Shown here: one piece after another, positions 10,894-22,566 of the stretch
How the letters are laid out: each line of letters opens with the position of its first letter
Position numbering within the stretch: position 1 is the first letter of the stretch
Assembly: GCA_016936785.1 (NCBI GenBank)
Contig: JAFGXE010000065.1
Span: forward strand, 1-26,008
Source of the DNA: Alphaproteobacteria bacterium
GTDB taxonomy: Bacteria; Pseudomonadota; Alphaproteobacteria; Rs-D84; NBLK01
Direction: 5' to 3'
Length of the DNA stretch: 26,008 nt
The notes under the pieces: generated by a model
What the model was told of the DNA's origin: nothing
What the model saw: only the letters and a program-made list of their open reading frames with translations
Databases searched by the model: none
Made by a program: the position numbers and the translations under genes

Positions 10894-12129
10894 CTAGAAA
10901 AGTCCCTCTTGTTTTGGTTTTGTGTTCAGGAGGATTTCACCATCATGGAAGATGATTTTTTCGGGTGGATTTGTTTGTGCTTTTTCAGCTGAGGAAATGA
11001 CGGAATCATTTTTTCCCTTCACAATTGCGAAACCGCGTTGGAGCACTTTTTTAAATGAATAGCTCTCAAGAAGGCGGGAGAAATTTTCGACTTTTTGTGT
11101 TGCAAAGGTGAGGCGATAGGTCATTTTTTCTTTAAGATTTGTCGTGCGATCATCGAGGCGACGGATTTGATCTTCGACAAGTCGCATTGGGGTCAAAATT
11201 TTTCCTGCTTGCGTATCCAATTGCATTTTTTTTGTTTGAAGAAAATTATGAATATTGCGCGTCAAACGGAGTTGTTTTTCTTGAAGTGCTTGAAGCAGAT
11301 CACTTCGCACGGGAACAGCTTTTTCGGCGGCACCTGTTGGTGTGGGTGCGCGTAAGTCAGACGCATAATCAACGAGTGTGGTATCTGTCTCATGTCCGAC
11401 TGCTGAAATGATCGGAATTTTAGAGTTGGCAACAGCACGGACAACATTTTCTTCATTAAAGGGCATGAGGTCTTGGAGGCTTCCACCACCACGCGCGAGA
11501 ATAAGAAGGTCTGGTTTTTCTGAATCGGGAAGCGCATTAAACCCATCAATTCCTGCTGTAATAAATTTATCCGCGCCATCACCTTGAACGGCACATGGCC
11601 ATAATACAACATGAACTGGAAAACGTTCTGAAATTCGGTGAAGAATATCTCTGAAAACAGCGCCTGTTGCAGAAGTGATAACACCTATTTTTTGAGGGAG
11701 AAAGGGCAGTGGCTTTTTGCGTGCGGAATCAAATAATCCTTCAGCTTGGAGTTTTTTCTTTCGATCTTCGATTTGTTTGAGAAGAGCGCCTTCACCTTCG
11801 ACTTCAACGGCTTCGATGGTGATTTGATAACTGGAACGCCCGGCGTAAGTTGTGATTTTCCCTGTCGCTACAACTTCCATGCCGTCTTTTAAGTCGATGT
11901 TAAGCGGAGTCCATTTCCAAATGACCCCATTGAGAATAAAATCTCGTCCGCCCGATTTTTCTTTCAAATCGAGGTAGATATGACCGCTCGTGTGTTTTTT
12001 GAGACCATGAATTTCTCCTTTGACTTTAATGCGCGTAAAAGCAGTTTCAACAACGCCTTTGAGAAGTTCTGAAAGAAGACTGACGGAAACAACATTTTCC
12101 ATGTTTAAAATTGGATTAGGTTTTTGCAT
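10894..12129 (-). CDS. xseA: Exodeoxyribonuclease VII large subunit
   Basis: [58 protein letters not shown] and [10 protein letters not shown]. Confidence 0.97.
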
Positions 12130-12130
12130 T

Positions 12131-13144
12131 TTACTTTATCTCTTCTAGGTTTTTACGGGGGTAAGCCGTTGCGGACATGTCGCTGAATTTTTTCAAGCGT
12201 GCGCGTTCGTAGCCTGCCCAAGCGATCATGACACCATTGTCTACACACAGAGAAGGTGTCGGCACAAAGAAAGGGATCTTTTCTTTTGCGCAAAGTGTTT
12301 TAAGGCGTTCGCGGAGAAAGGTATTACGGGCAACGCCACCGGCAAAAGCAACGCCATTGAGTTTGAGGTTTTTTGTTTGTTGAAGCACTGTTTCGAGGCG
12401 ATCTTCAACTGTTTCACAAACGGCTTCTTGAAAAGAGGCGCAGATGTCATTGATTTCTGTTTCTGAGAGACTTTCTTTTTCTTGAGCGATTCGACGAACA
12501 GCAGACTTCAAGCCTGAGAAAGAAAAATTCGGTTCTATTTTTCCTTTCATCGGACGGGGGAAATTATATTTTGTTTTGTCACCAAATTTTGCGTTTTTGT
12601 CGACTTCAGGGCCTCCTGGGTAAGGAAGATTAAGAAGTTTCGCGACTTTATCGAACGCTTCTCCAAGGGCATCGTCGAGTGTTGTGCCAAGAATTTTATA
12701 ATCTCCGATTCCATTCATTAAAATGAATTGGGTATGTCCGCCTGAGGCAAGAAAAACAAGATGTGGAAAGGGAATCTCATTTTCAAAACGTGGCATAAGC
12801 GCATGGGCTTCGAGGTGGTTAATTCCAATAAAAGGTTTGTCGAGTGCATAAGCGAGTGCTTTTCCAAATGTAAGACCAACATTCACACCACCGATGAGGC
12901 CTGGCCCTTGAACGGCAGCAATAACATCAAGATCAGAAAGAGAAATGTGTGCATCTTCTAGCGTTTGTTTCAGGAGAATATCAACTTTTTCAATATGTGC
13001 GCGCGAGGCAATCTCGGGGACGACGCCACCATAGATTTGATGGAGATCAATTTGTGTAAAAAGTGTATGCGCAATAAGGCGACGATCTTTTAAAATCGCA
13101 ATGCCTGTTTCGTCACAACTGCTTTCGATACCCAGTACGTACAT
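12131..13144 (-). CDS. tsaD: tRNA N6-threonylcarbamoyladenosine synthesis protein TsaD
   Basis: [58 protein letters not shown] and DNGVMIA. Confidence 0.97.
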
Positions 13145-13171
13145 CGCTTTCCTCTGTTATTATTTTAAGAA

Positions 13172-13200
13172 ACAGTAACGTGTTTTTTCTCGTGCGTCAA
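13172..13200 (-). promoter_or_regulatory. Sigma70-type promoter for tsaD-xseA
   Basis: TTGACG-N17-TACTGT on the minus strand. Confidence 0.5.
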
Positions 13201-13283
13201 TTTGTAATATTTTGTAATATTTGAATTCTTTTTTTTGAGGAGTGAGGATGTTATCTTTGGAACAAACAGAAAAAGGAAAAAAG

Positions 13284-14129
13284 ATGCAAGTTGCACAACT
13301 CCATACTCAAACAAATATTCATCGGACGGCTCAGATCCATCCGACATCAGTTGTTTCTGCAACGGCACGTATTGCAGCGAATGTTAAAATTGGTCCTTTC
13401 TGTGTGATTGGTGATAACGTTGAGTTGGCTGAAAATGTTGAATTAAAATCTCATGTTGTTGTTGATGGCGAACATGGCGGTGCGTATATTGGTGCTGGAA
13501 CAAAAGTTTATCCATTTGCTGTGATTGGTATGATTTCTCAGGATATGAAATATTATCATTCTGAAGAAGCGACAGGTCTAACAATTGGTAAAAACAATAT
13601 TATTCGTGAACATGTGACGATTCATATGGGAACACCTGCGTCTAATGGAACGGTTGTTGGAAATAACAATCTATTCATGGTTGGTGTTCATATTGCTCAT
13701 GACTGCAAAGTCGGAAATAATATTTATATTGCAAATAATACCCCACTTGCAGGTGAAGTTGAGATTGATGATTTTGCGATTATTGGCGGGAATAGTGCCA
13801 TACAACAATTTGTCAAAATTGGAAAATATGCGTTTGTTGGCGGGATGACTGCTGTTGATCAAGATATTCTACCATATAGTCGTGCGATTGGGGCACGTCC
13901 TGCGACATGGGAAGGTTTGAATGTTATTGGTCTCCGTCGTAAAGGATTTACAGGTGGACAGATTGAAACAATCAACGAAGCTTATCGTATTCTATTTTCA
14001 GATCTTCTGTTAGTGAAACGTATTGAAGCGTTAGAAGTTCTTGCAAAAGATGCTCCTGAAGTTCAGATCGTTTTGAATGCAGTGAAAGATCGCTCAAAAC
14101 ATTCTTTTGCAATACCACGTAAAAAATAA
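13284..14129 (+). CDS. lpxA: UDP-N-acetylglucosamine O-acyltransferase
   Basis: Hexapeptide repeats, [21 protein letters not shown] and [16 protein letters not shown] precedes ATG 13284. Confidence 0.95.
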
Positions 14130-14154
14130 CAAGACATTTTAGTTAAAGTCAGTT

Positions 14155-14973
14155 ATGTTGGTGCTTATGGATATTCAAAAAGTTGGTGTAATCGCAGGAC
14201 GTGGAGATCTTCCACATTTACTTAAGCAAAAATTTATTGCTCACAAAATGCCTCATTTTTTTCTTGGGATTAAAAGTGTTGTGAATGAAAACATTTGCGA
14301 TATTGTTTTACCTATTGGACAACTCGGAAAAGCAATTAGAACTTTTCAGAAAGAAAAAGTATCTCATGTTATTTTTATTGGAGGACTCGATCGTCCTGCT
14401 CGTGATCAAATTAAACCTGACTTAAAAGGGTGGATTTTTCTTTTGACTCATGCGTTTAAGATTAAAGGTGATAACAGCCTTTTGCTTTCTCTTGCGACTA
14501 TTTTTGAAAAAGCAGGAATGACTGTGATTGGTATTGATGATGTGATCCCAGAGTTGCTGGTTGAGGAAAAATGTTATACAAAGTCAAAACCGTCTGTAAA
14601 AGAAAAGAAAACAATCTTGTATGGTTTTGGCCTTGCTCAAACTCTTGGGCAAATGGATGTTGGGCAGTCAGTTGTTGTTCAAGGAAGTTTATGTCTTGGA
14701 CTTGAAGCGATTGAAGGGACAGACAATCTCATTCAACGTTGTGAAAAACTGAAAAGAGGGAAAGAAAAGCCAATTCTTGTAAAAGTTAAGAAGCCAACGC
14801 AAGATCGGAGATTGGACTTGCCAACAATTGGGTTATCTACGATTAAGAATATTGTAAAGGCAGGGTATCGTGGCGTTGCTGTTGATGCAGGACATGTTCT
14901 TTTTTCTGAAAAAGATAAAGCGATTGCGTATGCTAATGAACATCGTGTCTTTATTATTGGTGTCAAAAGATGA
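14155..14973 (+). CDS. lpxI: UDP-2,3-diacylglucosamine pyrophosphatase LpxI
   Basis: GVIAGRGDLP, DVGQSVVV, EAIEGTDNLIQR, KPTQDRRLDLPTIG, directly after lpxA. The start may be 14167. Confidence 0.92.
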   Translation: MLVLMDIQKVGVIAGRGDLPHLLKQKFIAHKMPHFFLGIKSVVNENICDIVLPIGQLGKAIRTFQKEKVSHVIFIGGLDRPARDQIKPDLKGWIFLLTHAFKIKGDNSLLLSLATIFEKAGMTVIGIDDVIPELLVEEKCYTKSKPSVKEKKTILYGFGLAQTLGQMDVGQSVVVQGSLCLGLEAIEGTDNLIQRCEKLKRGKEKPILVKVKKPTQDRRLDLPTIGLSTIKNIVKAGYRGVAVDAGHVLFSEKDKAIAYANEHRVFIIGVKR

Positions 14974-15200
14974 CTTCCGAGATTATTGGTTTTATTGGCG
15001 TTTCCTTTGTCGTTATTTCTTACGGTTTGCTTCAGTTCAAGAAAATTAAATCAGGTTCAATCTCTTATGATCTTTTAAATTTGATTGGCGCCTCAATGAT
15101 TCTGTATTCACTCTTTTTCAACTGGAATTTTCCTTCTTTTGTTATTCAAGTCATTTGGATTTTGATTTCAGTTTATTCTCTTTTTCATTCAAAAAAATAA
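14970..15200 (+). CDS. Small membrane protein, CBU_0592-like
   Basis: Three short hydrophobic segments, with 'YGLLQ', 'LLNLIGASMILYSL' and 'SFVIQVIWILIS'. ATGA overlap with lpxI. Confidence 0.65.
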   Translation: MTSEIIGFIGVSFVVISYGLLQFKKIKSGSISYDLLNLIGASMILYSLFFNWNFPSFVIQVIWILISVYSLFHSKK

Positions 15201-15281
15201 TTTTTTTCAAAAAGTGCTTTTTTTGATCTTGATTTTATGATACTATTCAAAATGAAAAGAGAAACTATGGGAGATCTCAAT

Positions 15282-17942
15282 ATGAAAAAAATACTTTTAT
15301 TCTCAGCAATTCTAATGGTTTTAGGTTTTGTGAGTTTGTCAGATGCAGAAGCTCAGCGTCGTTCAGATCAAACAACAACACGTAGCACATCTGCACGATC
15401 AGGTCGTGGAACAGCGACACGCGGGACATCTGCACGATCAGGTCGTGGAACAGCGACACGTGGGACATCTGCACGATCAGGTCGTGGAACAACAAGTGCA
15501 GCGCCAGCACGTGCTGTATCAAGAGAATCTGCAGGAGCAGAAGAAGTATATGAAGAAGAATATTATGATGACGCAGAATATGATGCACCTGTTGCTGTAG
15601 CACCTGCACGTTCGGGTCGTGGAACATCTTCTGTTAGAAGTGGACGTACGCGTGGAAGTGGTGGTCTGTCACGTTCAGCGGGTGTAAGTTCTTACGCAAC
15701 ACCAACAGTTGCTACATCATCTTCTGTAGCGGATTCAGAAGTTGAAACACCAGTAGAAGAATATGTTGATTTGGATAAACTTAAAGTAAAATCAAGCCAG
15801 GTTCTCGAATGTCAGTCTACATTTTCACAATGTATAAAAGAAAGTGGATGTTCTGCACCGAACGCAATGGCTTCAATTGTCGCAAAAGAAAAGCTAGATG
15901 GAATGCACCTTTGCTACTGTTCACCGCAATATGTGACTTTTAAGAAAAAAGAAAAAGAGATTTTTGATCTTGATGCAAAAATTTTCCGTGGCATGGCTGA
16001 AGGAAAGAACTATGCAACGATGAGTACTGAAGAACGAAGTATTTTTGATGATTTGAAACAAAGTATTGCAAAGCGTGGCTCAAATAATGATACAAAGGCT
16101 TATGATGACCTTGAGGAAGAACAAGATGTTTCTATTCAAGATATGATGGCTGAGATTGAGAGTCTAACGGCAAGTATGGATACGGATGGCAGTAGTTCAG
16201 AGAAATCAGGAAAAGCATTATTTGATGCTGTTGTAAAAAACTGTGAATCAATTGCTGAAACATGTGCCCCTGCCTTTGGTGGGACAAAAGAAGGTGCGTT
16301 AAAGGCGTTGACTGCACATGTCGCAAGTCAAACAGGTGTTGCTTGTCGTGCGTACGATGATGTTTTACGTAAAGAATATCAGAAAAAACAACTTGTTTTT
16401 GATAAAGTTCTTGGAACTGCAGCTCTTGCAAAAATTAAACAAGAAAGAAGCAAACTTGATAATACTGCTTGTATTATTTCATTGAAACAACAAGCGCAAG
16501 TGCCTGAGCTTTGTGGAGAAGGCTTTGCAAAATGTATGAGTTGTGATATTGAAGATGCGGGTGGAAAAAGCTGTTCACAATATAATAAAGATATGCTTCG
16601 TAGTCAAAAAGCAATGTTTGAAGGTGTTCTTGAAAAATGTCGTACGGGTAAGGGGACTGAAGTATTTGAAGCTTTCTTAACTGATGTGGGTCGCATTATT
16701 GATCGTTTTGCAATTCAAGCAAAATATGCTCAAGCAAAAGATGGTGTTCAAGCATTTGCAGAGTCTCAAAAAGCATGTAAGCAGACACTTGGTGAATGTG
16801 TATCAAATCTTTGTGGAAGCAAAAGCACAGGTTGGATTAACTGTGCCAAAAAAGATCTTCTTGAAATGACTTTGTCTCAAGGAAGTAAAACATATTATCA
16901 AAAAGATGATACAGGGCAAGATTTGACAGATGCAGATGGAAATAAGATTGAACTTTCTCTTGGCCAACTTGTTTCAAATGTGATTGATGTGGATAAAGCA
17001 TACGAAGCATGTGCTTCTGAGCGATCAATGTGTCAAAGTGGACTCGCCTTGTTGACAAAGAATCCATATATTGATCAAGATGTTGTTTCTCAAATTGAAG
17101 CAGATGGGGGTGAAGCACTTTCAAAGAGTATTTTGGAACAAGTTTTCACAACAATCCAAGAGAATGCAAGTAGCAATATTGAAAAACAACGCGGTAAGCT
17201 TGTTGCAGAACAAATTGCACATCTTGAACAAATGACAAATATGTATGAAACAACAAAAGCAGCTGAAATCACAAAATATAAAATGGATGGCGAAGTCGTT
17301 GCACAAAAAGCCGAAGTTGATTCAGATGTTATAGTGCGTAGTAATACAGCTGATTTAACTGCTTATCAATCTAGCTCAGATCTTTCTGTTAACAAAGAAA
17401 AAATTGATACAAAAGAAGAGATAACAAAGCAAATTTTAGCAGAAGCAAAAGAGTTTGCTGAAAAGCGGCCAAAGCTTGAAAAAATTTGTCGTGGTTTAGG
17501 CGGAACTTTTGAAACTGTTGAAATCGCGACAGATGGAACGGAATCAGGAGAAGAAAAGGTTCCAGCAGGTGGTGTTTGCCGTCTAGATGTTAAAGGTCTT
17601 GGAAAAGTTACAAGTTCTTCAGCAAGACGTGGTAGCTGGTGGTGGAAAAGACAAACAGATATTAAGTCTTCTCCAACTGAGGGAGCAACACAGGTTCTTG
17701 TTTCGACAGATTCACAATATAATTTCGACTGTCAGATTCAAGGGGATTATTCTTACTCAAATGATGGTAAATTCTTAGGCTATAAAAGCTCTTCGACAAG
17801 TACAACTACAGAGAGTTGCCAGCTTCCAAATGGTCAGAAACTCACAGCTGTTTCTTGTGTGATGCCAAGTTTAATTCAGATGATGGATAATACAATGCCA
17901 GAGAATTCTTGTCTTCCTGTGACAGAAGCATCTGGAATGTAA
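15282..17942 (+). CDS. Large secreted Cys-rich protein (886 aa) with Arg/Ser/Gly tandem repeats
   Basis: GGAGA RBS and a signal peptide (MKKILLF...AEA). SARSGRG repeats and an acidic patch are followed by 26 cysteines in recurring C-x3-[YFL]-x2-C...CG...C modules. Confidence 0.85.
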   Translation: MKKILLFSAILMVLGFVSLSDAEAQRRSDQTTTRSTSARSGRGTATRGTSARSGRGTATRGTSARSGRGTTSAAPARAVSRESAGAEEVYEEEYYDDAEYDAPVAVAPARSGRGTSSVRSGRTRGSGGLSRSAGVSSYATPTVATSSSVADSEVETPVEEYVDLDKLKVKSSQVLECQSTFSQCIKESGCSAPNAMASIVAKEKLDGMHLCYCSPQYVTFKKKEKEIFDLDAKIFRGMAEGKNYATMSTEERSIFDDLKQSIAKRGSNNDTKAYDDLEEEQDVSIQDMMAEIESLTASMDTDGSSSEKSGKALFDAVVKNCESIAETCAPAFGGTKEGALKALTAHVASQTGVACRAYDDVLRKEYQKKQLVFDKVLGTAALAKIKQERSKLDNTACIISLKQQAQVPELCGEGFAKCMSCDIEDAGGKSCSQYNKDMLRSQKAMFEGVLEKCRTGKGTEVFEAFLTDVGRIIDRFAIQAKYAQAKDGVQAFAESQKACKQTLGECVSNLCGSKSTGWINCAKKDLLEMTLSQGSKTYYQKDDTGQDLTDADGNKIELSLGQLVSNVIDVDKAYEACASERSMCQSGLALLTKNPYIDQDVVSQIEADGGEALSKSILEQVFTTIQENASSNIEKQRGKLVAEQIAHLEQMTNMYETTKAAEITKYKMDGEVVAQKAEVDSDVIVRSNTADLTAYQSSSDLSVNKEKIDTKEEITKQILAEAKEFAEKRPKLEKICRGLGGTFETVEIATDGTESGEEKVPAGGVCRLDVKGLGKVTSSSARRGSWWWKRQTDIKSSPTEGATQVLVSTDSQYNFDCQIQGDYSYSNDGKFLGYKSSSTSTTTESCQLPNGQKLTAVSCVMPSLIQMMDNTMPENSCLPVTEASGM
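15387..15491 (+). repeat. In-frame 39-bp tandem repeat, about 2.7 copies
   Basis: ACATCTGCACGATCAGGTCGTGGAACAGCGACACGYGGG starting at 15387, 15426 and 15465. It encodes TSARSGRGTATRG. Confidence 0.95.
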
Positions 17943-17962
17943 TTGGAAAAGTTAATATTGAA

Positions 17963-17991
17963 AAAAAAAGCCCTTTCTTAGGGCTTTTTTT
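17963..17991 (+). terminator. Rho-independent terminator
   Basis: AAAAAAAGCCC-TTTCTTA-GGGCTTTTTTT. Confidence 0.9.
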
Positions 17992-18023
17992 GTGTTTAAA
18001 AATATGATATACTCGTGAGTGAG

Positions 18024-19817
18024 ATGAGAAATTTAGCTATCCTTTTGTCTTTTTTCGTATTCACACTCGTGCAAGGATCTGATGGTTTTGCGCGTGTTGC
18101 GGATCGTTCCGAAGCTTCTGCACGTTCGGGGAGTAGAACGTCTACGCGTGATCGTAGTTCTTCGCGCGATAATACATCTCAATCATCAAGTGAAAGACGC
18201 GGTCGCTCAGTAAGCGGTGGAGGCACACAAGGGCGCCAACGTGTTGCTGGAAGTCGCACGGAAGCAGTCGTCAAAAAGGCAGTTGCAGAAGATATTGAAC
18301 CTGAAACGGAGGAAGCTGAAGAATCGCCTTCTCTTTCTGAAATGAAGAAAACTGTTCAATACGAAAAGATAGGAACAGATCTTGCCGATTTTATTTCTCA
18401 AGCACAATCTCGTCATTCAAAAGTAGGTCTTGGGATTAAGGACTATTCAATGGCAAACGGAGAATGTATTTCGAGTTATTCCGACTGCGCAAGTCAGGCA
18501 TCAATTTGTGGTACGAATTATAAAAACTGCTATGATGCAAGTCCCCTTGAGATTGAGGAGTCAACCTATTTTTGTTTCAAAAGTTTATTACCTAAATGTC
18601 ATCCTGATATACACGATCAAATGTTTGAGTCGCTTCTTAAAAATATAGAGATGTCACAGAAAGAAAAAATTCAAGGGGATCGTCCTGTTTACCAAAAGCA
18701 GTTAGGGGATTGTATTAGAAGAGAGTGTCCGGATGGAAACTATCCTTTCGAAAGTTGTTATCAGAGTGGATTAGAGGAAGCGAAAAAAGCATGTGGAGAT
18801 GTGATCAGTCATTGTAATCTTTTTTATCCGGACATGTTGAGCGAATTTGAAAACACATATAAAGTCATTCGAGAAAAAGCGCTCGATGAAGAAGCGATTT
18901 ATGCATTGGCTTGTCAAAATGCAGGTGGTTTTATGTCTCAAGGTCTTTGTAAAAAATCTTATGAAATACGGTATATTAAGGGGAATGATTTTAAGTCTAT
19001 GAAGCGTGTTTCAAAAATGAATCTTTCAAAGGAGTCTTATGAACTTGTTCTTTCTGAAAATCCAACAGAATATGTTTGTGGGATGAACACTGAAGCGATT
19101 ACGGAATTGAATAATGTGGCTGAAAAACAGTCAAAAAGAAAATTTATTGCAACGTCTGTTGGTGGTGTGGCGGGAGCTGCTGTTGGTGCTTACTTCGGGG
19201 CACAATTCCTTCCTGTTGGCATGGGGGGACTTGGAGGTGCAAGTAAATCACGGATTGATAAGGTTAAGGCAAGTATAGATGAGGCCGAAACTGAAGAAGA
19301 AAAGATTGAAAGACAAGCTAAGTTTGATGCACTAGAAGAAAAACAGGCTAGTTACATTAAAAACAACAAATCTTATAGGAAGTATGCTAAGAAAAAAGGG
19401 ATGAGAGAAGAGCTTATTGAAGAAAGTGAGCTTGATGCAATCTTAGAAGAAAAAAGTAATGTAATGCCAAATAAAGATATTATCAAAAATTATGTAGATA
19501 AATTTAAAGATAAAAATAATGATGTAAATGATGTTTATAATTCTTGTGTTAGTGATTTATCTGAGAAGACATGTAATATGTTAGTTGAAAAGCTAAATGT
19601 TATATTGTCCGATAATTCAACAGAGATCGATATTCAAGAAGAAATAACATGGGATGTTGAGGATTTTGATCTTTCATCTGCAACAGAAGATAACAGGGAC
19701 GAATTGTTGAGTGAGATTGATTTGTATTGTGATAAATTTGGTGATGAAAAAGAAGCTTGTTTGGTTGCTTTAGGAAGTGCGTTGGAAGATAAGATTCTAG
19801 AAAATTCTACAGATTAG
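18024..19817 (+). CDS. Secreted Cys-rich protein (about 597 aa), paralog of the upstream gene, with a glycine zipper
   Basis: Signal peptide, a SARSG/R-S-rich N-terminus, 18 Cys (CISSYSDC...ICGTNYKNC; ACQNAGG...LC), and GGVAGAAVGAYFG. An extended -10 (TGaTATACT) lies at 18005-18013. The start could be GTG 18015. Confidence 0.8.
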   Translation: MRNLAILLSFFVFTLVQGSDGFARVADRSEASARSGSRTSTRDRSSSRDNTSQSSSERRGRSVSGGGTQGRQRVAGSRTEAVVKKAVAEDIEPETEEAEESPSLSEMKKTVQYEKIGTDLADFISQAQSRHSKVGLGIKDYSMANGECISSYSDCASQASICGTNYKNCYDASPLEIEESTYFCFKSLLPKCHPDIHDQMFESLLKNIEMSQKEKIQGDRPVYQKQLGDCIRRECPDGNYPFESCYQSGLEEAKKACGDVISHCNLFYPDMLSEFENTYKVIREKALDEEAIYALACQNAGGFMSQGLCKKSYEIRYIKGNDFKSMKRVSKMNLSKESYELVLSENPTEYVCGMNTEAITELNNVAEKQSKRKFIATSVGGVAGAAVGAYFGAQFLPVGMGGLGGASKSRIDKVKASIDEAETEEEKIERQAKFDALEEKQASYIKNNKSYRKYAKKKGMREELIEESELDAILEEKSNVMPNKDIIKNYVDKFKDKNNDVNDVYNSCVSDLSEKTCNMLVEKLNVILSDNSTEIDIQEEITWDVEDFDLSSATEDNRDELLSEIDLYCDKFGDEKEACLVALGSALEDKILENSTD

Positions 19818-19833
19818 TTTTTAGAGAGGAAAA

Positions 19834-20133
19834 ATGCGGTATTTATTTTTAATTTTTTTTGTAATGAGCCATTCTGTTTTTGCCCAATTAGGCGGTGCTT
19901 TGATTGGTGGTGCTGCTGGTGGTGGGATTGTTGGTGGGCTTACAAATTTTGTGACAAAAAAGATACAGGATAAACGTCAAGATACGATGGAAGAACGAAT
20001 TGGATGTTATGAGCCTAAAACAGGTCAAAAAATAGCGAAAATAGAGGAAGTTATTTCTTTGCCTCAATTAGATCTTGAGCGGGCAAGGAAAGAATATTAT
20101 GCCACAAAACATGGAACGGGCTTGATTCCATAA
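19834..20133 (+). CDS. Small secreted glycine-zipper protein (99 aa)
   Basis: GAGGA RBS, a signal peptide ending VFA, GGALIGGAAGGGIVGG, and a single Cys. Confidence 0.75.
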   Translation: MRYLFLIFFVMSHSVFAQLGGALIGGAAGGGIVGGLTNFVTKKIQDKRQDTMEERIGCYEPKTGQKIAKIEEVISLPQLDLERARKEYYATKHGTGLIP

Positions 20134-20150
20134 TTAATTTAGTTTAGGCT
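20122..20150 (+). promoter_or_regulatory. Putative promoter for lpxC, leaderless geometry
   Basis: TTGATT-N17-TAGGCT, 7 nt before ATG 20158. Confidence 0.45.
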
Positions 20151-20157
20151 TAATTTT

Positions 20158-21012
20158 ATGTTTGAACAGACACTTCAAAAATCTTTTAGTCTTGAAGGCA
20201 TTGGTCTCCATTCTGGGAAATCGGTGAGTATGGAAATTTTTCCACGCGAGAACGGTGGGATAATCTTTTCTCGTTCGGATATACCCTGTGCGCCTCTCAT
20301 TCTTGCGCGATATGATAGTGTCGTGGATACAACAATGTCGACTTGTATTGGGACTTCTGAAAAAAATCGTGTTTCTACGATTGAACATCTCATGGGCGCG
20401 TTTTATCTTGCAGGCGTCGATCATGCTTTAGTTGTTTTAAATTCAGAAGAAATTCCAATCGGTGATGGGTCTGCGAAGCAGTTTCTTGAGAAGATTAATG
20501 AAGTTGGTTTGTATCGTCTAACAACAAAACGCAAAGTTCTAAAGATTCTTAAAGAAGTGACGTTTGAAAATGAAAAAGCATCAGTTTTGATTAAACCCGC
20601 GGTTTCGTTTATTATTCAACAGGAAATTGATTTTCCTGAGAAGTTGATTGGTAAGCAAGTTTGTCGATTTGATATCCATAGTGATTCAATCCAAACAGAT
20701 GTTTCTTCTGCGCGGACATTTGGGAATATTGCAGATCATGAAAAACTCAAAGCAATGGGGTTGGCGCGTGGGGCATCTCTTGATAATTTGCTTGTTTATA
20801 ATGATTCTAAAGTTCTTTCATCAGAAGGGCTTCGATTCGATAATGAATGGGTGCGTCATAAAGTGCTTGATACAATTGGGGATCTTTCAACATGTGGGAT
20901 GCGAATCGCAGGCGAATATGTTTCTAAAAAAGGCGGGCATTTTCACAATAATCAACTTTTAAAAGCCATTTTTTCTGATCGCCAAGCCTTTGAAATTATT
21001 GAAGAGTCTTAA
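20158..21012 (+). CDS. lpxC: UDP-3-O-acyl-N-acetylglucosamine deacetylase
   Basis: GIGLHSG, STIEHLM, PIGDGSA, ARTFG, HKVLDTIGDL and GGHFHN. Confidence 0.97.
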   Translation: MFEQTLQKSFSLEGIGLHSGKSVSMEIFPRENGGIIFSRSDIPCAPLILARYDSVVDTTMSTCIGTSEKNRVSTIEHLMGAFYLAGVDHALVVLNSEEIPIGDGSAKQFLEKINEVGLYRLTTKRKVLKILKEVTFENEKASVLIKPAVSFIIQQEIDFPEKLIGKQVCRFDIHSDSIQTDVSSARTFGNIADHEKLKAMGLARGASLDNLLVYNDSKVLSSEGLRFDNEWVRHKVLDTIGDLSTCGMRIAGEYVSKKGGHFHNNQLLKAIFSDRQAFEIIEES

Positions 21013-21029
21013 AAATAGTAATTTTTCAC

Positions 21030-21058
21030 TTGAAGACAATTTTTAAATGCGGTATCCT
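21030..21058 (+). promoter_or_regulatory. Promoter for the M23 operon, leaderless geometry
   Basis: TTGAAG-N17-TATCCT, 6 nt before ATG 21065. Confidence 0.55.
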
Positions 21059-21064
21059 ATTGGC

Positions 21065-22423
21065 ATGAAGAAAAAAATATCAAAACACCATGTAATATCA
21101 GGCGGGCTCTTCTTTTGCGGGCTCATTTTAGGAATCTTTTTAATTGTTGGTCAATCAAAGGAATCTCGAAGTAGTGCCTATGTCCAAGCAATTAATGGAG
21201 ATGAAACTGTTTCTAGTCGGGAATATGCCAAAACAATTGAACGTTCTGTTGTCGATTTATTTACTGGGGTTCATCGTATTGAATTAAATGTCCAGTCTGG
21301 AGATACTCTTTCTGCTCTTCTTGAAAAAGCAGGTGTTCCTTATAATCAACGTCAGGCAGTTATTGCTTCTTTCAAAGATACATTTGATATTCGGACGTTG
21401 CGTCCCGATACAAAACGTCGCAAGGGAGATCGTCTTCGTCTGCATTATAAAGACGGTGGCAAAGAAGGCTTGATTTCTTTAGAAAAGCTTGAGGTTTATC
21501 GTTCTTCTATTCAGCGTTTTTATTCAGAACGCAAAGGAGATGGTTATAAATCTTGGGAAGAAACTTTTGATCCTGCAGTTAAGGTCGTGCGTCGAGAAGG
21601 TGTGATTGGAGAAGGACAGAGTTTTATTGCTGTCGCTCAGGCACAAGGAATTCCTTATAACATTATTGATCAATTTTATGATATTCTTGGTTTTGATCTC
21701 GACTTTGAACGCGACATCCGTGCAGGTGCTAAATTTTCTGTCTTGTATGAAGAAAAATATGGTCCTGATGGAAAATATATTGGGGATGGTGCTTTTCTTT
21801 TTGGTGAATTTAAGAATTCCGGTTGCGATTTGAAGATTTATCGTCATGAAATGGCAGATGGTAAAATTGCTTACTACAATGCAGAAGGAAAAGGTGCGCA
21901 AAAAGCTCTGCGTAAAACGCCTATCAATGGTGCGCGTGTCTCTTCTCCCTTTGGGCTAAGACGTCATCCAATTTTAGGATACACAAAAAAACACCAAGGT
22001 GTTGATTTTGCAGCATCTGCAGGAACACCAATTCCAGCAGCAGGTTCAGGACGGGTTGTTTTTGAAGGTAAAAAAGGTGGCTATGGGAACTATATTAAAA
22101 TTCGTCATAATGGGATGTATGAAACAGCTTATGCACATTTAAGAGGATTTAAAAAAGGTGTTCATGTTGGATCAACAGTAAAACAGGGTGAAATTGTTGG
22201 GTATGTTGGATCAACAGGACGATCAACTGGACCACATCTTCACTATGAGATTCTTAAAAATGGAGTACATGTCAATCCGCTGACTGTGAAAATGCCTTCA
22301 GTTGAAAATCTTGATGGAAAAGAGCTTGTTCGGTTTAAAAGAAATAAGGAGAAGGTTGATGTGCAATTTGCGCTTCTTGAAGAAAATATGAAGAAGTATG
22401 CACAGAATCTATTAAAAGATTAA
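21065..22423 (+). CDS. M23 family peptidoglycan endopeptidase (MepM-like)
   Basis: N-terminal TM, a LysM-like segment (VQSGDTLSALL), 'SSPFGLRRHPILG...HQGVDFAA' and 'GRSTGPHLHYE'. Confidence 0.92.
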   Translation: MKKKISKHHVISGGLFFCGLILGIFLIVGQSKESRSSAYVQAINGDETVSSREYAKTIERSVVDLFTGVHRIELNVQSGDTLSALLEKAGVPYNQRQAVIASFKDTFDIRTLRPDTKRRKGDRLRLHYKDGGKEGLISLEKLEVYRSSIQRFYSERKGDGYKSWEETFDPAVKVVRREGVIGEGQSFIAVAQAQGIPYNIIDQFYDILGFDLDFERDIRAGAKFSVLYEEKYGPDGKYIGDGAFLFGEFKNSGCDLKIYRHEMADGKIAYYNAEGKGAQKALRKTPINGARVSSPFGLRRHPILGYTKKHQGVDFAASAGTPIPAAGSGRVVFEGKKGGYGNYIKIRHNGMYETAYAHLRGFKKGVHVGSTVKQGEIVGYVGSTGRSTGPHLHYEILKNGVHVNPLTVKMPSVENLDGKELVRFKRNKEKVDVQFALLEENMKKYAQNLLKD

Positions 22424-22566
22424 TGTTTTTTGTTTGGGCGTTTCTTGGTTTTCTTTCTTTGTATGTCAGTCATCATCACCCTCATGATATGACCGAGGTT
22501 CTTGCGCAGAAACGTTTTTATCTTATTCTTGGTCTGGCGTTTCTGTCGATTGGATTTTTTGCCTAA
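22423..22566 (+). CDS. Small membrane protein (47 aa) with a His-rich loop
   Basis: MFFVWAFLGFLSLYVSHHHPHDMTEVLAQKRFYLILGLAFLSIGFFA*. It fills the gap exactly, with TAATG overlaps at both ends. It is below the ORF-track size cutoff. Confidence 0.75.
   Translation: MFFVWAFLGFLSLYVSHHHPHDMTEVLAQKRFYLILGLAFLSIGFFA

Follow-up and report, generated by a model that had tools for sequence, protein, structure and literature searches.

Two adjacent, predicted exported cysteine-rich proteins of an uncultured alphaproteobacterium belong to a divergent superfamily of the order Rs-D84 without a known fold

What kind of proteins are encoded by two large, cysteine-rich genes that lie side by side in the small genome of an uncultured alphaproteobacterium? 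The genes, herein called A and B, are found together with a small third gene, C, on a stretch of 26,008 nucleotides (nt; the window), which is contig JAFGXE010000065.1 of the GenBank assembly GCA_016936785.1. The organism belongs to the GTDB order Rs-D84, a placement that follows from a relative's protein named Candidatus Enterousia onthequi by NCBI. The window represents contig 11 of a 0.76-Mb genome that consists of 110 contigs, is 80% complete, and derives from a freshwater or sediment metagenome; the genomes of its relatives all measure about 0.5–1.1 Mb. An earlier note, made from the letters of the window alone, had described A and B as a tandem locus of a secreted, cysteine-rich modular family with no recognizable domain. 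The open reading frames and their translations bear out the basic description: lengths, cysteine counts, and the shared plan of A and B are as described (Table 1), all quoted cysteine motifs are present in the two translations, and a small glycine-zipper gene does follow B.

The family relationship between A and B holds at the profile level only. In a direct comparison by BLASTP, the basic low-complexity regions align with an E value of 0.002 and the cysteine modules with an E value of 0.036, the latter in the register that the earlier note had proposed (CIISL...CGEGFAKC with CISSYSDC...CGTNYKNC, and CKQTLGEC... with QLGDCIRREC...). This direct similarity is weak to borderline. A bridge is provided by cysteine-rich proteins of the gut genus Enterousia, which belongs to the same order. 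When aligned by hhalign with four Enterousia proteins, a set of eight A-type proteins matches with 98% probability and an E value of 2.9e-13 over 268 columns, spanning A residues 174–516 and Enterousia profile positions 99–374. Against these four Enterousia proteins, the B-type alignment reaches 93.7% probability and an E value of 2e-7 over 143 columns, spanning B residues 121–269 and profile positions 258–403, so that the footprints of A and B overlap at positions 258–374. In addition, a superfamily hidden Markov model (HMM) made from 33 family proteins, with the B type left out entirely, matches B with an E value of 7e-15 in a search that covered all stop-to-stop open reading frames of the window's genome. 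Because of these profile matches, the relationship of A and B is significant despite the weak BLASTP result. As far as profile comparison can tell, A and B are old and divergent paralogues of one superfamily of predicted exported, cysteine-rich proteins.

Both genes are real and conserved. Orthologues of A in four genomes of the order (G001, G002, G011, and G007) match the family profile with E values of 1e-274 to 8e-206, and orthologues of B are found in G001 (E 2e-35), G002 (E 3e-35), and G011 (E 3e-9). Family membership of A and B is seen in three features, namely the profile match, recurrent C-x6-C pairs with an even number of cysteines, and a predicted Sec signal followed by a basic tail. 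The 13-nt DNA word CTGCACGTTCGGG, to which the earlier note had drawn attention, indeed occurs at exactly 15604 and 18118 and nowhere else. It encodes the ARSG peptide common to A and B, and about 0.07 chance matches are expected between random stretches of these lengths (hand arithmetic); hence, the word adds nothing by itself and, being within chance, is no evidence of recent exchange.

The superfamily is expanded within the genome. The paralogue count by HMM, which had been suggested in the earlier note, yields six members: A and B on contig 11 and one each on contigs 90, 48, 86, and 110. The contig-90 paralogue comprises 870 amino acids and carries a glycine zipper at its end. Those on contigs 48 and 86 are cut by a contig end and comprise at least 516 and at least 480 amino acids, respectively, the former breaking off within a long array of SARSGRG repeats; the contig-110 member has about 290 amino acids. 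The locus is thus tandem in that A and B are adjacent, but it is not isolated, with six or more genes here and a superfamily that spans the order. Complete Enterousia genomes contain about 12–14 members each. In the one-contig Enterousia genome G051, about 14 members account for ~11,600 codons or ~35 kb of 1 Mb (~3.5%, summed by hand). Wherever these proteins are named, they are labeled "hypothetical protein".

With the A profile, the family is detected in 42 of the 61 genomes of the order. By taxonomic family, this corresponds to two of two genomes in f1, 32 of 32 in f5, two of two in f6, the single genome in f4, four of 19 in f3, and none of four in f2. The cysteine module of B alone as a query gives 113 of 151. 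Relatives of A number seven among 1.84 billion representative proteins, and the Enterousia profile finds none in an even sample of 199 genomes from elsewhere in the Alphaproteobacteria. Judged by these sequence searches, the family is confined to the order Rs-D84. The lineage of the window is an environmental, non-gut branch of this order. A scan of contigs returned only one locus, whose sequence reads identically to the A-orthologue locus of G002; it comes from "Rickettsiaceae bacterium 4572_127", a metagenome-assembled genome of the sister genus. Contigs from the sequencing runs X2 (2025) and X3 (an aquatic metagenome) contain fragments of A, B, C, and the flanks (12100–22500) that are 95–99% identical, and close strains hence occur in other waters. 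Rs-D84 bacteria are described as fermentative and as lacking respiratory chains, and a partner-dependent lifestyle with many hypothetical membrane proteins has been proposed for them (PMC12306168); they are probably partner-dependent. The literature searched holds no description of the family.

The signature of the family is the C-x6-C pair. Five such pairs occur in A as compared with ~0.7 in shuffled sequences (P 2e-4), and four occur in B as compared with ~0.5 (P 1e-3). Across the family, 241 of 938 adjacent cysteine spacings equal seven. The number of cysteines is even in 31 of 38 family proteins, and among the seven with an odd number, several are truncated at a locus end, are split, or begin at an uncertain position. 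In B, the cysteines C148, C162, C169, and C192 are invariant among 22 sequences. A candidate oxidase is encoded on contig 63 (L056:1486-2334, minus strand): a DsbA-like protein of 282 amino acids that has a CGHC active site and carries a membrane segment at its N terminus. All five near-complete relatives (97–100% complete) retain a DsbA-family gene of about this size. Cysteine parity, conservation, the DsbA-like gene, and the helical models described below speak for putative intramolecular disulfides in A and B. An expansion of DsbA/DsbB, which the earlier note had thought worth looking for, does not exist, there being one DsbA-like gene and neither DsbB nor VKOR found.

No search connects the family to a described protein or structure. 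Neither Pfam nor NCBIfam yields a match above threshold for A, B, C, or 17 relatives, in agreement with the absence of a named domain in the earlier note, and a sequence profile search of the PDB yields E values above 0.3 and no related entry. AlphaFold2 models, which the earlier note had proposed to combine with Foldseek, are mostly helical, and neither the A nor the B model finds a match in the PDB at an E value of 0.001 or better. A wide VIA-align search reaches maximal Z scores of 7.7 (A) and 6.1 (B), in each case with generic three-helix bundles that lie under the tool's stated noise level for helical proteins. Among the AFDB clusters, A finds two unnamed or automatically named proteins of ~820 amino acids that look like family members, and B finds none. 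Searches of the ESM Atlas by shape and by features give nothing, and word-index searches, swamped by the low-complexity tails, give almost nothing. A and B hence constitute an orphan family that matches no known fold, and the modeled helical cores of A (residues about 170–600) and B (residues 140–320) may represent a new fold.

Table 1. Genes A, B, and C and the mapped segments of their products (window coordinates).
Feature	Position	Strand	Description or basis
Gene A	15282-17942	+	Open reading frame; 886 amino acids, 26 Cys; predicted exported Cys-rich protein, A-type subfamily
Predicted Sec signal peptide of A	15282-15353	+	Hydrophobic N terminus, 24 amino acids, ends AEA; mature end QRRS
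Polybasic S/T/A/R/G low-complexity region of A with SARSGRG repeats	15354-15731	+	Translation
Acidic Tyr-rich patch interrupting the basic region of A	about 15540-15585	+	Translation
Putative Cys-stapled helical body of A, residues about 174-600, five C-x6-C	15801-17081	+	AlphaFold2 model
C-terminal C-x3-GG...C module and beta-rich domain of A, residues about 736-886	17487-17939	+	Model, alignment
Gene B	18024-19817	+	Open reading frame; 597 amino acids, 18 Cys; predicted exported Cys-rich protein, B-type subfamily
Compact, putative Cys-stapled helical core of B, residues 140-320	18441-18983	+	Model and Enterousia profile alignment
Glycine-zipper hydrophobic segment of B, residues about 374-405	19143-19238	+	Hydropathy, orthologue conservation
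Gene C	19834-20133	+	Open reading frame; 99 amino acids, 1 Cys; predicted exported glycine-zipper protein

Protein A starts with the MKK at 15282, as do its orthologues; a longer version of the gene starting at 15237 is thereby ruled out. The A-x-A motif at the end of the predicted signal peptide, followed by Q-R-R, recurs among the A orthologues. The mature chain of most A-type proteins opens with Q-R-R-S or a close variant (15354–15365 in the window), and the Enterousia relatives have P-Q-Q-R-R-G at the same position after cleavage. This start could serve as a sorting or processing signal or as a pyroglutamate cap. Export by the Tat pathway is ruled out since the arginine pair comes after the hydrophobic core and not before it. 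The basic tail that follows contains a tandem repeat of 39 nt in 2.7 copies with 98% identity (15387–15491). T-A-R-S-A repeats stand after the signal peptide of the Enterousia proteins and form the same kind of tail, so that the tail, recurring throughout the order, is a constant part of the family and not noise. In the contig-48 paralogue (L052:2786-4333, minus strand), at least eight similar SARSGRG-type units are seen, and the contig end lies inside the array. The repeats probably broke the assembly here, and their copy number may vary between cells.

AlphaFold2 modeling of A covered residues 150–886 and used an alignment of 33 sequences. The model has a mean predicted local distance difference test score (pLDDT) of 75.6. 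Its body is all helical, with pLDDT values mostly of 80–95 and helices of up to 55 residues in length. β-Strands are predicted toward the C terminus at model residues 593–712, which correspond to protein residues 742–861 (pLDDT 45–91). The C-terminal C-x3-GG...C module can be aligned throughout the A family.

Protein B likewise begins with a hydrophobic N terminus, predicted to be a Sec signal peptide, and shares the subsequent basic tail at the alignment level. The model of its core has pLDDT values mostly of 75–95 as far as residue ~310, with a minimum in the 230s–240s and a drop toward residue 320. Elsewhere, a C-terminal helical hairpin is confident and the remainder is of low confidence. 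Hydropathy peaks at residue 374, and the zipper segment found here is kept in B orthologues. Zippers are located at the C terminus in Enterousia relatives of 720 amino acids, as in the contig-90 paralogue. Gene C, preceded by the ribosome-binding site GAGAGG, encodes a predicted signal peptide, an invariant G-x3-G-x3-G-x4-G zipper (G21, G25, G29, and G34), and an invariant C58. In G001, its orthologue is located 3' of the B orthologue, and in G011 it is enclosed by two B-type genes; hence, two families of the order preserve the B–C gene pair. A gene that adjoins the C orthologue in G007 was read by eye as one for a putative small outer-membrane β-barrel. On contig 6 of G001 (L058:1071-2183, minus strand), a lysine- and cysteine-rich gene of 371 amino acids with an acidic N terminus, no obvious signal peptide, and no counterpart in the window is placed between the B and C orthologues. 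On contig 36 of G011 (L013:720-2907; L060), a B-type gene is split into two overlapping frames of 404 and 332 amino acids, as could arise from a frameshift or a sequencing error, or because two genes are present. This contig also contains, in succession, a cysteine-rich gene of 413 amino acids, a C-type gene, and another B-type gene.

Lipid A genes flank the three co-oriented genes. On the 5' side of A lie tsaD (minus strand), lpxA, lpxI, and a gene for a small membrane protein of the CBU_0592 family; on the 3' side of C lie lpxC, genes for an M23 peptidase and RuvX, a VirB2-like gene, an LpxL-like gene, and a gene for a UvrD-type helicase. The place of A beside tsaD is retained by its orthologues in G001 and G002. 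The intergenic gaps amount to 81 nt between A and B, 16 nt between B and C, and 24 nt between C and lpxC. From this short spacing, at least B, C, and lpxC are probably cotranscribed, and scans of the locus for promoters and terminators stay at background level. The CBU_0592-family protein, encoded at 14970–15200 between lpxI and gene A, has 76 amino acids and matches its NCBIfam model with an E value of 1.3e-26. Farther away (4881–5270, minus strand), a protein of 129 amino acids contains two clear EF-hand calcium-binding motifs (Pfam E 5e-14), which is an uncommon find for a bacterial genome so small.

The closest comparison is with the Enterousia cysteine-rich proteins (unpublished), which are homologous to A and B at the profile level. 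Common to all are the signal peptide, a basic tail rich in T/S-A-R-S, and C-x6-C modules in the same register, as well as helical bodies and glycine zippers. A and B belong to a different family of the order, one living in freshwater or sediment as opposed to the gut, and they contain fewer cysteines (26 and 18 as compared with 33–43). Protein A differs by its β-rich end and by not having a zipper. Protein B differs by lacking the N-terminal C-x6-C-M-D-x-F-C head, by its zipper in the middle of the protein, by a long acidic tail, and by being paired with a separate small zipper protein.

Similarities to described systems are confined to outline and principle. Chlamydiae are host-dependent and have small genomes, and their OmcB and OmcA are comparable in outline as exported, cysteine-rich proteins of the envelope. 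A basic N-terminal stretch of OmcB is reported to bind host glycosaminoglycans; OmcB is β-rich, whereas A and B are predicted to be helical. The corresponding Pfam families PF03504 and PF03503 do not match A or B at E values up to 1 or the relatives at E values up to 0.1 or 1. Twin Cx9C and Cx3C proteins of the CHCH type (PF06747) follow the same principle of two cysteines placed at a fixed number of helical turns, presumably bonded to a pair on a neighboring helix. Herein, the dominant spacing is Cx6C and not Cx9C, the domains are far larger, the export pathway is bacterial, and A and B have no match to PF06747. G-x3-G-x3-G segments like those of B and C occur in exported envelope proteins such as SlyB/PCP, the Rickettsia 17-kDa antigen (PF05433), and TraT (PF05818). 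Unlike these glycine-zipper outer-membrane proteins, B and C lack a lipobox cysteine, and their zippers are attached to or encoded beside large cysteine-rich bodies. Although the motif is present in B and C, PF05433 and PF13488 give no match at E values up to 1, possibly owing to the composition filter of HMMER. The best Pfam match of B is that of TraT over the zipper (E 0.011), which at 15.9 bits stays under the gathering threshold of 31 and does not make B a member. The Helicobacter proteins HcpA–E (Sel1-like repeats, PF08238) are secreted, helical, disulfide-bridged repeat proteins of a host-associated bacterium, features that are predicted or putative in A and B; the latter show no Pfam match to Sel1, no Sel1 or TPR structure is found among their fold matches, and the cysteine pattern differs. 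The family has no homology to any described cysteine-rich exported envelope protein of host-dependent bacteria.

What might such proteins do? We give about an even chance to an envelope-bound, disulfide-stapled helical scaffold or attachment layer, the location and function of which we infer. Herein, the proteins would be exported by Sec with a cleavable signal peptide. The membrane-anchored DsbA-like oxidase would then oxidize the C-x6-C cysteines and thereby pin the helices into stiff bundles or rods, as suggested by cysteine parity, conservation, and the helical models. Retention in the envelope would be achieved by glycine zippers, either internal as in B, C-terminal as in the contig-90 paralogue and Enterousia, or supplied by protein C. 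The polybasic SARSG tail of variable repeat length might, speculatively, act as an electrostatic tether to a polyanionic surface, be it the cell's own lipopolysaccharide or peptidoglycan or a partner cell. Jointly, the six or more paralogues would build a lineage-specific, disulfide-reinforced envelope or attachment layer. The surface role that the earlier note had considered, or a role in the envelope, is plausible. Several observations weigh against such a scaffold. DsbB and VKOR are found neither in the window's genome nor in the five 97–100% complete relatives; together with the missing respiratory chains of Rs-D84, this leaves the oxidized state of the cysteines not assured. Basic residues straight after the cleavage site of a signal peptide hinder Sec export in Escherichia coli, and A itself has no anchor segment. 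Outside the window, the gene context is not envelope-specific, as the A orthologues of G001 and G002 lie beside tsaD but not alongside lpx genes. The only metatranscriptome of the source study contains next to none of the locus. A complex prediction for B (residues 285–425) with C (residues 17–99) gave a score of 0.07, which weighs neither way.

Rather unlikely, in our judgment, are surface adhesins or a variable coat, which would cross the outer membrane, for instance through a secretin system, and bind a host or partner with tails and rods. Here, the paralogue set and changes in repeat length would yield diversity of binding. Large paralogue families are present in these tiny genomes, for which partner dependence has been proposed (PMC12306168). 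The genome does encode a secretin (contig 56, 1989–2525, minus strand; PF00263, E 1.6e-15; frame of 375 amino acids) next to an Omp85-family gene. This secretin, which may be part of type II secretion, a type IV pilus, or a Tad system, would at most be a candidate route, and the proteins themselves contain no domain for translocation across the outer membrane. The 39-nt repeat of the tail is near-perfect, with many more copies in the contig-48 paralogue. Orthologues of A are 28% identical between genera as compared with 67% for TsaD, which fits an interaction surface and also a loosely constrained scaffold. The weak fold matches include N-terminal helical bundles of BibA, a streptococcal adhesin (Z 6.7); these matches, however, are generic helical bundles under the noise level of the tool. 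Contigs of four sequencing runs represent close strains at low depth, in which A and B and the flanking housekeeping genes alike diverge by a few percent, with no excess divergence of A and B obvious at this very low depth. Highly improbable are secreted effectors or pore-forming toxins, as put forward in the earlier note, that would insert their zippers into a target membrane and possibly leave by the dispersed type IV secretion system (T4SS). Glycine-zipper motifs are known in some pore formers and are the sole argument for a pore. VirB2-like and VirB8-like T4SS genes are present in the same window, and some T4SS substrates start through Sec, for example, pertussis toxin. Presentation by the T4SS is nonetheless not borne out: Sec signals are predicted, VirB4 is present in all 61 genomes of the order as opposed to 42 in which the family is detected (none in f2 and four of 19 in f3), and the neighborhoods of orthologues show tsaD beside A and no conserved adjacency to T4SS genes. 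Moreover, Pfam, NCBIfam, and fold searches reveal no toxin or enzyme domain, and sets of 6–14 large, structural-looking paralogues are atypical of toxins. Least probable of all is that the cysteines are metal or sulfide ligands or redox buffers and the proteins periplasmic stores or sensors in an anoxic habitat. The failure to find DsbB and VKOR, the anaerobic lineage without respiratory chains, and the sediment or freshwater habitat would suit such a role. Yet the DsbA-like oxidase has survived extreme reduction in all genomes checked, even cysteine numbers prevail, and the i, i+7 spacing on helices suits staples between helices, with CxxC or histidine-rich metal motifs not being dominant.

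Common in animal guts and sediments, the uncultured Rs-D84 bacteria have genomes smaller than 1 Mb and give roughly 1.5–3.5% of their DNA to this unexplained family. Since almost every retained gene matters in such genomes, the family is a prime candidate for an attachment or protection structure. It predates and extends beyond the gut genus Enterousia, with the basic tail and glycine zippers as constant accessories and with one subtype (B) that travels with a small zipper protein. New herein are the non-gut branch, the A-type and B-type architectures, the conserved polybasic tail, and the B–C gene pair, and the cores of A and B are ready targets for structure determination. The family also poses a biochemical puzzle, namely dozens of putative disulfides in an anaerobe that keeps DsbA without a known re-oxidase. 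A bolder proposal, which we deem unlikely, is that the family constitutes a new class of disulfide-stapled helical folds that forms an attachment organelle or armor of Rs-D84, with zipper-anchored rods whose polybasic tips of variable repeat length grip the anionic surface of a partner cell. If true, this would provide a physical basis for the epibiotic or parasitic life of these bacteria, with DsbA working without DsbB or VKOR in anoxic habitats.

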